A stretch of DNA of 64,000 nucleotides from Spirochaetia bacterium (GTDB lineage Bacteria > Spirochaetota > Spirochaetia > UBA9216), in assembly GCA_963677925.2 (NCBI GenBank), contig CAXXYH010000004.1, forward strand, positions 448,001 through 512,000, given 5' to 3'. Positions 36,001-39,000 of the stretch are shown here, in pieces. The position numbers were made by a program. How positions within the stretch are numbered: the stretch's first letter is position 1; every line of letters starts with the position of its first letter.

Positions 36001-39000
36001 ATATCCGGTATATAGCTTATCAAATGCTTCCGGGGGTAGATTCTCCTCTTCTTCTTCGAAATTATACTTATTTACAATATCAAGGAATTCTGGTGGTAAA
36101 AGATCATTTGTTTTTAACCCATGATAGCACAAACTTGTAACTGTATGACAAAGCACTTCGTTCGGTAATTCGTTAATCGCTTTCGTTCTTGAAGCCTTTT
36201 TAAAACTTAGATGAAGTATATTGAGATTAGAAGTCTCCTGTAATCTATTACTGATGATCTCAAATATTTGCCAATTTATTCCGGTTCCATTTTTTCCATG
36301 AACTTCTAATAGGTTTCTAACTATCATAAGACCCCCCGTTTTGAAGGTCCTCATCTGTCTGTAACAACCAATTTAATACTGTATCTCGTCTCCACCTTTT
36401 ATTTCGACCACCAATATTGCCATCGCTTTTTCCGTTATTAGGTTGGAGATATGTACGATTACAAGCTGTTTTGTAACATATTCCCTTGGCTTCACAAGCC
36501 TCTTTAAGCGATAACCAAGCTTTTTTGGGCAGGATGTCTGCTAAAAAGCCATTTTCATTGTTTTGTTCATTTTGATTTTTAATTTTTTCCATTTATAGCC
36601 TCTTTATGTTTTTGATATTTAATTAGTAAAGGTTCATGAGTGGTCTGGAGTTGATTGGCATTTAGGGGCATATGAGTGAATAGGAAAATATTTAATTATT
36701 CTGTAAGGAAATAATCTCAAATAATGAAAAGATTGCTTGATCAATTTCCATTCATGTCCCCATAATGGGGATATGAAAAAATCATATAAAATTAAGGATA
36801 AGAGAGAATCTGGAATTTATCTATATGAGCGCTTGTATGAATATGACCCAGAAACTAAAAGGACTAAGCATGGAAAGAAGAGATACATTGGGAAGCTTGA
36901 TGAGAACGGTGAGATTATCAAGAAAGATACTTTGTTAAGTGTTCGGAAGTATCGATTTAATGATTTCATAGGTATAGACGAGAAATTTCCATTGTTAGAT
37001 AAAATACTTTTAAATATTGATATTGATATGACCCATATATCATCAAGTCATCCTATACCCGATAGTACAGTTTATGACTATGTTCTGGAACAACCCTCAA
37101 AAGTAGGGAAATACTATATCGCTATTCATTGGGATAATGGTTTTAAGAATTTTACGATTTCTGCAACTGAAGTTTATAAAGCATCTAATGCGACAGTAAC
37201 CATCAAGAATTCTACAAGACAGAATACTCCAACCAAAAAATTATGGTATATTAAGAATTTTAATAGTTCTTCAATAGAAGATATTTTTAATCGAACGGAT
37301 AATCACAGATTAGGTAGTAATGGACTATTAAAAGCTCCCTATGCAAAAGACACTGATATTCAAGAAATCGGTAAAATGTATAAACTATTATTGTTTCTTG
37401 TAGAATCATTTAAACTGAAAACGCAATGTGCAGAAGTTGGTTTCAGAGAAGCCCTTGATGAACTTTCCATCTTTCTCTGGTATTATCTAAAAAATCATCA
37501 AATAGATTCCTTATTTGATGATATTAGTTATATTTCTAATTGTTGTATCTGTATTTTCCCCGAAAGAGAAGAGATAAGGAAAATGCAGTATTAAATTGAT
37601 GAATTAAAAAAGCTTGTGAAGATATTCTCAATACTAATTGTGTTTAATTATTATTTTGCTGCAAGAATACTAACACTCCAGCCTTTTTTGTCTGCAACAT
37701 TAAGTTTATAATGGGATCCATCTTTTAGGTAGACTTTAAGGCATTTTAATATTGGTAATATCATTAATAACATTGAGTAATGGCCTATAGTAACATCCGC
37801 AATATTTGATATTGGTATTTCAAGTGTTTTTCTTTTAACATGATTCTCATGAATTATTCTCTGATTAGTAAGGTATAGATGACCTCCTTTAGCTCCAGTG
37901 ATAAACTTGATAGGACCTCCTCCACTACGACGAATCAGTTCTTCATTTTCATTTAATTTGGTTTTTGGAAGTTTGATTTTTGTGTTCATTTTTGATCTCC
38001 ATTAATAGCTGCAAATATGCAGCAATTAAATAATATAATAATCTGCTGCATATTTCAAGCATGGATATAGGGAAAGCCATAGTTAGTATTCGAAAATCAA
38101 AAAAGATATCACAGAATAAAATAGCAACATTAACAAATCTAAATAGGGGTTATATCTATCGCTTAGAAAATGATCATATCAGTCCAAGTATAAATACATT
38201 AGAGATCATAGCTGAAGCAATGAATATTAAAGTTTCGGATATAATTATTTATGCTGAAACATGTAATGGATAAATATCAATTATTGCTGCTTTATTCACG
38301 TTTTTAAAACTTGAAATTGAATTCCAGAGAGATTAAATTATAAATATAGACGTGATTTGTTAACCGGATTGCAGGCGTCTTAAAATATAATGCTAAAAGG
38401 AACCTAATAATGAATAATTCAAATAAAGAACGGCTTCCCTCATATGAATGTATGTTTTGTAAAAGAACATTGAAACAAGTCGGTGGCCAAAGAATTATCT
38501 CACAGCACAATTTGAAAATCTGCTTATCTAATAGATTTCTTGGAGGTGGTAATCCTGATAATTTTGATGTTTCAATAAAAATAGAAGAAGATTTGTACAT
38601 AAATTTTCGTGGTCCAAAAGATGAATGGAATAATAATATTAAAGAGTATATAAAAAAAGAATTTTTAAATGATCTACTACCATGGTTCTGTCAGGAGTGT
38701 GGGAAAAGAATGTGTCAAGATTGTGGCTCTCCGACTCAATATTTAGGTGGTTGTGATATTCTAAATGATAACGGTTCTTCTTCACATTCTGGAATATTTG
38801 GAATACCTTCGGGATGTATTAATCCTAAATGTAAGAAGCATCTTAAATCATGATATTTCAATGCAATTTTTAGATGAATAAGTGAGTAATATTCATCATT
38901 GTATATTAACTTTATACTTATTTCTTTTCTATTCTCATGCATTGAGGCGCCCTGAGGAGGGATTTCGTTTTGTTCAAAGGATTCAAACTTGGATTGATCC

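Follow-up and report, generated by a model that had tools for sequence, protein, structure and literature searches.

A probable SAM-II-class translational OFF switch ahead of a Cys-rich ORFan on a tRNA-Leu-integrated island of a Spirochaetia bacterium

A SAM-II-class aptamer (SAM-II/SAM-V fold) directly precedes a Cys-rich ORF in a Spirochaetia bacterium and is probably a functional translational OFF switch that was brought in by a defence island integrated at a tRNA-Leu gene. New in this analysis are SAM-II/V-like aptamers in front of relatives of this ORF in foreign genomes, the same type of leader on viral contigs, and copies of the riboswitch in front of metK within Spirochaetia. Judged from sequence matches, the association of riboswitch and ORF is not a one-off and recurs in other phyla. 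Coordinates are positions in the window, the whole 64-kb stretch of DNA that was analysed; genes and RNA elements for which they are given lie on the + strand.

Rfam family RF00521 (SAM_alpha, i.e., SAM-II) matches positions 38339-38417 with 40.6 bits against a gathering score of 36 (E 1.1e-5, cmscan over the whole window), which is only 4.6 bits above that score. Across the genome (5.04 Mb; 5,044,142 bases) the element has an E value of 1.9e-7 and is the sole copy above the cut-off among 12 matches with E ≤ 10, the second-best of which reaches 21.1 bits; RF00521 exceeds the cut-off in none of 14 control genomes. The surrounding sequence is AT-rich (GC 0.29), and the leader reads GCTAAAAGGAACCTAATA, followed by an ATG at 38410. 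Of three sequencing runs whose contigs were compared with the stretch, one contains all of it and the other two only a few 151-base pieces, which bears neither on expression nor on absence. A genome-wide survey's note had placed a SAM-II aptamer over the ribosome-binding site and start codon of an uncalled Cys-rich ORF here, and this was reproduced in score, singularity and start position. Related models fit the element less well: RF01726 (SAM-II long-loop) gives 21.2 bits and does not reach its gathering score of 44, and RF01826 (SAM-V) was not reported at E ≤ 10 in a scan of 38200-38600.

The aptamer and expression platform extend over 38348-38402, as delimited by the Rfam match, structural parsing and pair counts. 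In the structural parse, P1 pairs 38348-38353 with 38375-38380, the U-rich third strand GAUUUG occupies 38354-38359, the P2a 5' side CC lies at 38364-38365 and the P2 5' strand AUUGC at 38368-38372. An A-rich L3 of 11 nt (38381-38391) leads to the P2 3' strand GCUAAA (38392-38397), in which the predicted SAM-pairing U is at 38394. The Shine-Dalgarno (SD) sequence AAGGAA (38397-38402) directly follows GCUAAA; it occupies the P2a position, with GG at 38399-38400 complementary to the CC, and lies 8 nt upstream of the ATG. Base roles were taken from the SAM-V structure paper (PMC6061858, in part), which gives the SAM contacts as the U of GCUAAA, the next A in a U:A.U triple at the sulfonium and the third A at the aminoacyl end, and also names the U-rich third strand and UUGC among the SAM-contacting parts. 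All of the contacting bases named in that part of the paper are present and in register in the window element.

Resemblance to SAM-II (RF00521, the 'metA motif' of alpha-proteobacteria) thus includes the H-type pseudoknot, P1, GAUUUG, UUGC-GCUAAA and an A-rich L3, together with a 2-bp P2a at the SD as in the translational metX SAM-II described in the consulted sections of PMC6061858. Differences lie in the host, which belongs to Spirochaetia and not to the alpha-, beta- and gamma-Proteobacteria and Bacteroidetes listed in the portion of PMC2258182 used here; in the location on a mobile island, with an ORFan as the predicted regulated gene instead of a Met/SAM gene; in the AUUGC that replaces the consensus CUUGC; and in the level of control, which is predicted to be translational whereas most SAM-II riboswitches are thought to act on transcription (PMC6061858 and PMC2258182, both in part). 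SAM-V (RF01826, found before metY/bhmT of Pelagibacter) shares with the element its binding-site architecture, the translational OFF logic predicted here and an SD within a short P2a, as far as the relevant sections of its description go, and the A of the window's AUUGC corresponds to A18 of SAM-V. The window element differs from SAM-V in that the RF01826 model leaves it unreported and in that its L3 has no P3 hairpin, a SAM-V feature.

Pairing was counted in 11 island-type copies: 90.9% of cells are paired, and sliding the partners as a control lowers this to 35-51%. P1 comprises six pairs with 100% of cells paired, and two of the six have changed on both sides. P2 cells are 90.9% paired, the misses being two misaligned rows, and P2 has no covariation because its columns are invariant. 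A CUCC-like loop stretch pairs with the SD GGAG in 77% of cells; P2a is just 2 bp (CC/GG) in the window copy and 3-5 bp (CUCC/GGAG) in several relatives. The compensatory P1 change mentioned in the survey's note is borne out by the copy in genome G039, which has UACG/CGUA where others have GACG/CGUC, and the outermost P1 pair covaries (AU in five copies, GC in three, GU in two, CG in one). A wider set contains P1 types GACGU/GCGUC, UACGU/ACGUA, CGUGG/CCACG, GCGCC/GGCGC, CCGCC/GGCGG and ACCGC/GCGGU around an unchanged core. In the Spirochaetia island group three of the six P1 pairs never vary, and some of the conservation may therefore be due to recent common descent; GACGU in P1, GG ahead of CUUGC and an extra A in GCUAAAA are invariant features of that group's own. 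The minimum free energy of the leader is no better than that of shuffled sequences (z 0.58), which is expected for a pseudoknot but lends no support, and nested folding keeps the SD open, matching the expectation for a ligand-free state.

A promoter-like site, TTGAAA-17-TAAATT (38311-38339; 9/12 in a consensus scan), would place the RNA start a few bases ahead of P1; such sites are not above chance in this AT-rich stretch, with six found against 9.0 expected in shuffles. Its position agrees with TTGACA/TATAAT-like boxes upstream of other copies.

The putative regulated gene (38410-38853) encodes a 147-aa protein with 10 Cys that belongs to a zinc-finger-like ORFan family, with relatives at 41-55% identity. 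It is a real gene: the family has 263 cluster representatives at E ≤ 1e-3, eight Cys and one His (C14, C17, C94, C97, C102, C105, H126, C136 and C141) are invariant in 20 sequences, and the AF2 model is confident (pLDDT 89.3, pTM 0.83). No family match was found in Pfam, PADLOC or PHROGs, Foldseek found no match in the PDB at E ≤ 0.001, and a BFVD fold search found none; the best hit of a wide VIA-align search, which paired residues 1-89 with LysR effector domains, had a Z of only 3.8. DUF8328 (PF27007) is a language-model lead only (score 0.92; 190/256 features). Any role for the protein is conjecture, since neither its fold nor its family is a known one. Members of the ORF family are very sparse (1/401 genomes of its own class and 1/400 of the class of genome G001), fusions of the family are only to TPR/Sel1 repeats (3/21 long members scanned), and two peptide patterns did not find it in viral contigs. 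Its loci adjoin integrase, resolvase, RM, GmrSD, PIN, CRISPR and Lamassu genes.

A genomic island of about 10.6 kb (32869-43445), low in GC and strain-specific, carries the ORF and its leader; it is delimited by GC and by comparison with genome G041 of the same genus. A tRNA-Leu(CAG) gene (32782-32868; ARAGORN; Rfam tRNA, 45.4 bits) forms its left border and integration site, followed by a tyrosine recombinase gene (33020-34159; Pfam Phage_integrase, 1.3e-24) that represents the island integrase. GC is 0.30-0.35 over 33001-44000 and 0.41-0.48 in the flanks. Identity with G041 ends at the 3' end of the tRNA, which is query position 167 when positions 32700-44200 of the window are compared: matches to G041 are confined to query 1-167 (99%) and 10747-11501 (97%), and about 10.8 kb of other DNA separates the two. 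The strain-specific island of the survey's note is thus confirmed by the GC shift and by absence from the sister species, and the features of a tRNA-integrated island that were found are an integrase beside the tRNA, deviant composition and absence from a close relative. A search for a direct repeat of the tRNA end found none within 32700-44500 or at the right border of the island; a 60-nt copy of the tRNA end lies about 35 kb downstream, beyond the window. Just upstream of the riboswitch, a gene at 38061-38273 encodes a 70-aa XRE/Cro-type HTH protein (Pfam HTH_3, 8.4e-12; PADLOC HTH_VI, 1.2e-14, and RM 'control protein' models), which might be a transcriptional regulator of the cassette. A Lamassu-like operon (39693-43340) begins 840 bp downstream of the 147-aa ORF as a separate transcription unit, with a convergent ORF between; it resembles Lamassu in having two genes, for 410-aa and 177-aa proteins, upstream of an LmuB-type SMC-like ATPase gene on the same island. 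The 641-aa LmuB (41415-43340) matches PADLOC (2.2e-53), and Pfam finds AAA_23 in the operon. Lamassu combines LmuB with an LmuA effector and LmuC; no PADLOC model matched the 410-aa and 177-aa proteins.

Within the class, RF00521 reaches the gathering score in 8/151 genomes, the host genome included, and E ≤ 0.01 in 16/151. It was found in none of six genomes of the host's own family and is missing from G041, in agreement with the patchy occurrence described earlier. In 11 copies, which come from 10 genus-level groups, the aptamer stands at a fixed distance from a start codon. The ORFs downstream comprise one ADP-ribosylglycohydrolase (ARH; Pfam 1.9e-76), four proteins with 33-66% identity that make up a ~200-aa family, and others without a Pfam match; apart from the ARH, the riboswitch-controlled ORFs match nothing in PADLOC or PHROGs, and when 25 ORFs, riboswitch-linked or neighbouring, were compared all against all by BLASTP, no relationships came to light besides those within the two families already known. 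The survey's statement that genes behind the switch are unrelated to methionine holds for the copies it examined but not for two copies below the threshold, L041 (29.7 bits) and L045 (24 bits), which stand in front of metK and indicate that the class also serves SAM synthesis in Spirochaetia. No Rfam SAM riboswitch was found at E ≤ 10 at the host's own metK. Defence- or TA-type neighbours occur, as a raw count, in 5/8 Spirochaetia contexts, and three of the eight copies with long context are surrounded by ordinary metabolic genes. Neighbours of other copies and of ORF-family loci include type I RM, HipA and Gp49 TA pairs, SNF2-NOV_C, UvrD/Fic and GmrSD/PstI RM.

Two distant relatives of the ORF had been noted earlier as lacking the riboswitch. 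This does not apply to all relatives, for SAM-II/V-like aptamers lie just upstream of the ORF in 4 of 14 distinct foreign loci, one of them as a tandem SAM-II/SAM-V pair; at the other 10, neither model R1 nor sequence patterns found an aptamer. Motif-plus-P1 patterns were relied on because R1, built from 11 near-identical Spirochaetia copies, is too sequence-specific (L021 scores 9.2 bits and L029 13.3 bits). With the genome as background, a strict pattern of core plus P1 has two matches in the whole genome of 5,044,142 bases, the window element among them, and three in 106,618 bases of 19 ORF-family loci, each of these three lying just upstream of the homologue and on its coding strand. When the pattern is relaxed, L011 and another site in L013 are matched as well. 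At gathering thresholds Rfam reports a SAM riboswitch in none of 20 ORF-family loci, and the foreign aptamers score below these thresholds: in L013, SAM_alpha reaches 28.1 bits and SAM_V 37.1 and 34 bits (SAM-V gathering score 41), and the L021 aptamer, which was picked by eye, is unreported at E ≤ 10. Recurrence of the link between switch and ORF in distant lineages strengthens the original reading.

Locus L013 has a tandem SAM-II and SAM-V leader, a small leader ORF and then two paralogues of the Cys-rich family. The tail of its SAM-II-like aptamer can form either the pseudoknot or an anti-terminator beside a hairpin with a U-run, and the SAM-V-like aptamer at the SD follows. This two-level layout, a termination-type aptamer and then an SD aptamer, resembles the arrangement of SAM-II and SAM-V in tandem described in the part of PMC11508383 consulted; it differs in that a leader ORF and Cys-rich paralogues, not a methionine gene, lie downstream, and the window has a single aptamer. 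An ORF 180 bp beyond the paralogues is MetK-like (Pfam S-AdoMet_synt_C, 3.2e-19), with its N-terminal domain missing.

Leaders of the form GCUAAAAGGAG-N7-AUG precede ORFans of 62-87 aa on about 10 viral contigs, of which L131 scores 36.3 bits, and a SAM-II-like aptamer on viral contig L099 stands before a full-length MetK. The most specific DNA pattern had no match in viral contigs. Among 74 loci found with a looser pattern, 25 represent a single coding stretch conserved in gut phages and were judged to be chance matches; L065 is unreported by Rfam.

From sequence comparison we infer SAM as the ligand, the OFF logic and the biological role. RNA synthesis would start at the promoter-like site just before P1. 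With plentiful SAM, the 3' tail GCUAAA would pair with the loop AUUGC to form P2, the GAUUUG strand would lie in the P2 major groove around the ligand, and the adjoining GG of the SD would pair with the loop CC as P2a, which would block ribosome loading at the ATG at 38410. When SAM falls, the triplex would open and the 147-aa zinc-finger-like protein would be made. The role of the protein is probably tied to falling SAM levels, given the switch before its ORF and similar switches before relatives in other phyla. We favour mobile-element cargo that would answer SAM depletion, for example when phage enzymes degrade SAM or under methionine starvation; that the ORF serves anti-defence or is other MGE cargo is rather unlikely. 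It may be, and we suggest this tentatively, that mobile elements and phages have recruited SAM-II/V switches as SAM-depletion sensors, in a promoter-riboswitch-ORF cassette that induces conflict genes. An equally tentative suggestion is that the cargo of such cassettes, namely the zinc-finger-like family, ADP-ribosylglycohydrolases and small ORFans, would be expressed when an invader or starvation drains SAM.

Other explanations differ in what they make of the same observations. A chance look-alike or a decayed relic without regulatory effect would fit the small score margin, the AT-rich context and the 2-bp P2a, but is very improbable in view of the genome-wide E value, the 14 control genomes with nothing over the threshold, the fixed start-codon spacing in 11 copies, the compensatory P1 changes and the reappearance of the aptamer in other phyla ahead of members of this ORF family. 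A fold that was kept while its ligand changed, e.g., to SAM-AMP or decarboxylated SAM, would explain a non-methionine regulon unlike that of any characterised SAM-II/V switch; the island group's own invariant features and SAM-AMP signalling in type III CRISPR (PMC12255297, in part) are in its favour. It is improbable nonetheless: all bases described as touching SAM are unchanged, metK-linked copies in the same class have an identical core, and L013 and L099 tie the same aptamer type to MetK-like genes.

These MetK links also speak for a metabolic explanation, in which the ORF family has an unrecognised part in methionine/SAM metabolism or homeostasis, perhaps as a zinc protein that acts on MetK, SAM salvage or sulfur handling, and the switch is end-product feedback riding on mobile DNA. 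All characterised SAM-II/V regulons are Met/SAM genes (PMC2258182 and PMC6061858, both in part), a MetK-like ORF follows the L013 paralogues behind the tandem leader, and aptamers precede MetK in L099 and metK in L041 and L045. We consider this explanation unlikely, because the family is sparse and adjoins mobile and defence genes, has no enzyme-like fold match and is fused only to TPR/Sel1 repeats, unrelated ORFans and an ADP-ribosylglycohydrolase stand under the same leader type, and the L013 MetK-like ORF lacks the N-terminal domain. A guard function, in which phage enzymes that remove SAM, and so evade defences dependent on methylation, would open the switch and release an effector or counter-measure from the ORF, is possible but doubtful. 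It would agree with expression only at low SAM, as predicted from the OFF logic, with the presence of the cassette and Lamassu on one strain-specific island, with the raw count of defence/TA neighbours and several such ORF-family loci, with the diverse, fast-changing cargo under the same leader, and with phage SAM lyases that defeat BREX (documented in the portion of PMC11842806 consulted). Against it, the riboswitch-controlled ORFs other than ARH match nothing in PADLOC or PHROGs, the same leader is also present on viral contigs, which do not suit a host-guard role, and the literature searches made here turned up no paper on a mechanism of this kind.

Nor did a literature search, with supplementary files outside its scope, find a paper on SAM riboswitches that govern island, defence or ORFan genes. 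An ORFan behind a riboswitch of known ligand is a rare case in which sequence states a physiological cue, here low SAM, and this cue is attached to a 263-member family, a second family of ~200 aa and phage ORFans, each of them found on mobile or variable DNA. Restriction-modification, BREX and phage counter-measures all trade in SAM, so a SAM-gated defence-island cassette would be an experimental handle on SAM warfare; if the reading is true, a metabolite riboswitch would act as an immune or counter-immune trigger instead of in biosynthetic feedback. A conservative reading extends SAM-II to Spirochaetia and mobile elements and adds a new regulon for the class. A parallel is the abiF motif/RCd22 before AbiF in C. 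difficile, in which a structured 5' leader likewise silences a mobile-element gene until a signal arrives (bioRxiv 10.1101/2025.04.15.648962, in part). According to the same part of that source, the abiF leader is 'riboswitch-like' without a known metabolite and works through premature termination and an antitoxin RNA, whereas the window leader belongs to a known metabolite-binding class and is predicted to act on translation.

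Two gathering-level Rfam matches occur in the whole window, a tRNA-Leu and a SAM-II riboswitch (SAM_alpha, RF00521) at 38339-38417 on the forward strand, whose 40.6 bits exceed the gathering score of 36 (E 1.1e-5 in the whole-window scan). Of 12 RF00521 matches at E<=10 in the 5,044,142-base genome, this element is the one above the cut-off (E 1.9e-7; runner-up 21.1 bits), which reproduces the score and the single above-threshold copy of the genome-wide survey's note; none of 14 control genomes has a match above the cut-off. In the Rfam scan of 38200-38600, SAM-II long-loop (21.2 bits versus 44) is the one further related family listed, and SAM-V is not. 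The element reads AGACGU GAUUUG UUAACCGG AUUGC AG GCGUCU UAAAAUAUAAU GCUAAA AGGAACCUAAUA AUG. According to PMC6061858, SAM-II and SAM-V share a site in which the SAM adenine is paired by the U of GCUAAA, the A after this U makes a U:A.U triple facing the sulfonium, the aminoacyl end of SAM is held by the third A, and the third strand is the U-rich strand 3' of P1; the Shine-Dalgarno (SD) sequence lies within the short P2a helix, of just 2 bp both in SAM-V and in translational metX SAM-II. Every ligand-site base named there is found in register in the window copy, and its SD GG (38399-38400) is complementary to, and could pair with, CC at 38364-38365. Across 11 aligned island-type copies, 90.9% of cells are paired, versus 35-51% when the partners are slid: P1 is paired in 100% of cells with two pairs altered on both sides, P2 in 91% and invariant, and P2a (anti-SD/SD) in 77% with lengths of 2 to 5 bp. 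A wider copy set has six different P1 helices around one unchanged core. A nested fold of the leader keeps the SD unpaired, with a stability no greater than that of shuffles (z 0.58), which argues neither for nor against the pseudoknot model. The promoter-like TTGAAA-17-TAAATT that ends 8 nt upstream of P1 is not above chance in this AT-rich DNA; other copies have TTGACA/TATAAT-like boxes at the equivalent position. The element has every testable SAM-II class feature except the usual regulon, and is probably a SAM-binding translational OFF switch.

The riboswitch lies on a strain-specific island, as had been proposed. GC content is 0.30-0.35 within 33001-44000 versus 0.41-0.48 outside, and a tyrosine recombinase follows the end of tRNA-Leu(CAG) at 32868. 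A same-genus sister genome (G041, 98% complete) lacks the island: its matches are confined to the tRNA side (99%) and to the window from 43446 onward (97%), with ~10.8 kb of unrelated DNA between, which sets the island limits at ~32869-43445. An XRE-type HTH gene is immediately upstream of the riboswitch, and a Lamassu-like operon occupies 39693-43340, with 410-aa and 177-aa genes followed by a 641-aa LmuB-type ATPase (PADLOC, best 2.2e-53). Neither leading gene matches a PADLOC, Pfam or PHROGs family, and a Lamassu-like effector would therefore represent an undescribed type. About 35 kb downstream of the tRNA, at G000:C4:516270-516329 (window coordinate ~68270, beyond the window), the 3' part of tRNA-Leu recurs as a perfect 60-nt copy, as it does in G041. 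The variable 10.6 kb may form the opening section of a longer, composite island; that longer region would take in low-GC 53000-64000, with ORFs of 1140 and >2236 aa.

Within the class Spirochaetia, RF00521 occurs in 16 of 151 genomes at E<=0.01 and in 8 of 151 at the gathering score, own genome counted, and in none of the six genomes of its own family, so the patchy spread noted earlier holds. Island-type copies have the common pattern GACGUGAUUUG..CCGGCUUGCAGCGUC..AAAcAA..GCUAAAAGGAG with a start codon a few bases later, and precede the Cys-rich protein, four members of a ~200-aa family (11 known proteins in total), an ADP-ribosylglycohydrolase and unrelated ORFans of 62-163 aa; the source names of two downstream proteins are Spirochaetes/Spirochaetia. 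The survey's claim that downstream genes are unrelated to methionine or SAM stands for these copies and fails for two weaker ones with P1 CGUGG/CCACG (L041, 29.7 bits; L045, 24 bits), which precede metK; the class thus also employs the riboswitch classically. Among copies with long context, five of eight are beside integrase, restriction, toxin-antitoxin or helicase-type defence genes (a plain count), and three of eight are among ordinary metabolic genes.

Relatives of the Cys-rich ORF are encoded at 5 + 19 loci that came from scanning one genome per species and metagenomes. With near-identical loci (L015, L016, L019, L020, L023, L026, L025) and those missing the 5' end (L030-L032) set aside, 14 distinct foreign loci are left. 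A SAM-II/V-like aptamer is present in four, of which L021 and L029 are mutually related, and ten show none with the models and patterns applied; not every relative is thus without a switch, as the two distant ones in the survey's note are. RF00521 is absent at gathering level from the 20 family loci scanned, and scores are low with both Rfam and R1, a covariance model made from 11 near-identical Spirochaetia copies; these aptamers are called because of core, P1 and position. A strict pattern (GATTT[GA], [CA]TTGC, GCTAAA, P1 of at least 4 bp) finds two sites in the whole genome, one being the window element, and three (L013, L021, L029) in 19 family loci totalling 106,618 bases; each of the three is on the coding strand, shortly upstream of a Cys-rich homologue. 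A relaxed pattern finds four genome sites and five locus sites, adding L011 and L013c. In L011, TTGACA-17-TATTAT is followed by the aptamer. A stretch conserved 3' of the tail in L011, L021 and L029, GCCUGUAC..GGCUUCUCAUGCC, is able to pair with the tail and could be an expression platform. In a lower-threshold scan of 12 loci, L013 (Lysobacterales MAG contig, 2,942 bases) has three matches. At 60-133 (SAM_alpha, 28.1 bits), the tail AAAGCGUGGG is able to pair with CCCGCUUU of a hairpin-plus-U-run, and this aptamer is, from its sequence, a predicted transcriptional switch coupled to a terminator. The second (SAM_V, 229-297, 37.1 bits), in tandem with the first, ends in an SD ahead of a leader ORF of 27 codons. 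The stop codon of this ORF overlaps the start of a Cys-rich homologue, and a second paralogue is next. The third aptamer (SAM_V, 1463-1532, 34 bits) is ahead of a 114-aa ORF and then a MetK-like ORF (3.2e-19) that has the central and C-terminal domains without the N-terminal domain.

A looser pattern finds 74 loci in the viral collection IMG/VR. About ten (L076, L078, L079, L080, L093, L112, L114, L116, L131, L133) share GUGGGC GAUUUG CUUCCAG CUUGC G GCCCAC ..GCUAAAAGGAG N7 AUG, with 36.3 bits for L131, and ORFans of 86-87 or 62 aa lie downstream of these SD-AUG-type SAM-II aptamers; neither the ORFans nor their neighbours have a Pfam family. In L076, L078, L131, L133 and six similar loci, the ORFans are divergently placed among large genes without a Pfam family. 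Locus L088 (74.6 bits) is ahead of a metA-like gene. In L099 (2592-4394), a full-length MetK gene is immediately preceded by a SAM-II-like aptamer, ~500 nt upstream of which lies a SAM-I/IV aptamer (67.2 bits); this one phage-like contig has two SAM riboswitch classes.

The predicted low-SAM cue, mobile carriers, diverse cargo and frequent defence or counter-defence neighbours point to a possible role of the Cys-rich protein in conflicts where SAM is drained. Classical feedback, with the protein in some unrecognised SAM-related function, has to be taken seriously as an alternative; the MetK-like neighbours in L013 and L099 are its main support. Host metK, 29 kb upstream of the window start, comes after ahcY; the ~250-nt region between them (L055, G000:C4:418800-419272) has hairpins and no Rfam riboswitch or other Rfam family at E<=10. 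In the accessible literature, searched without supplements, we found no published SAM riboswitch ahead of island, defence or ORFan genes.

The Cys-rich ORF (147 aa, 38410-38853) begins at ATG 38410. A word-indexed search gives five relatives at 41-55% identity, and a profile search of 1.84 billion representatives gives 263 members at E<=1e-3 and 214 at E<=1e-10. The ORF is present in 1 of 401 Spirochaetia genomes, its own, and within the class of genome G001 the family occurs in 1 of 400. Twenty aligned sequences have invariant C14, C17, C94, C97, C102, C105, H126, C136 and C141, together with W73, W92, D116 and N138; the Cys/His pattern would fit two zinc sites. An AlphaFold2 model from these 20 sequences (pLDDT 89.3, pTM 0.83) has no Foldseek match at E<=0.001 and no matching solved or viral predicted structure (best VIA-align Z 3.8). 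The ORF has no Pfam, PADLOC or PHROGs match, and a language-model look-up points to DUF8328 as a candidate family. TPR or Sel1 repeats occur in 3 of 21 longer family members scanned, the other 18 having no domain match. A putative 195-aa ORF without a family match (38736-39323, reverse strand) converges on the Cys-rich ORF, with an overlap of 118 bases at the latter's 3' end. In the near-identical metagenome contigs L018, L019 and L020, the homologue (2686-3105 of L018) has an in-frame stop codon and may be a broken copy. Three hydrolase families recur beside the Cys-rich family or riboswitch cassettes: N-formylglutamate amidohydrolase-like (L009, L023, L054), HD_4 (L010, L027, L048) and calcineurin-like phosphoesterase (L014, L021, L023, L029). 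In L054, the FGase gene is 3' of a riboswitch-controlled 64-aa ORF on the same strand.
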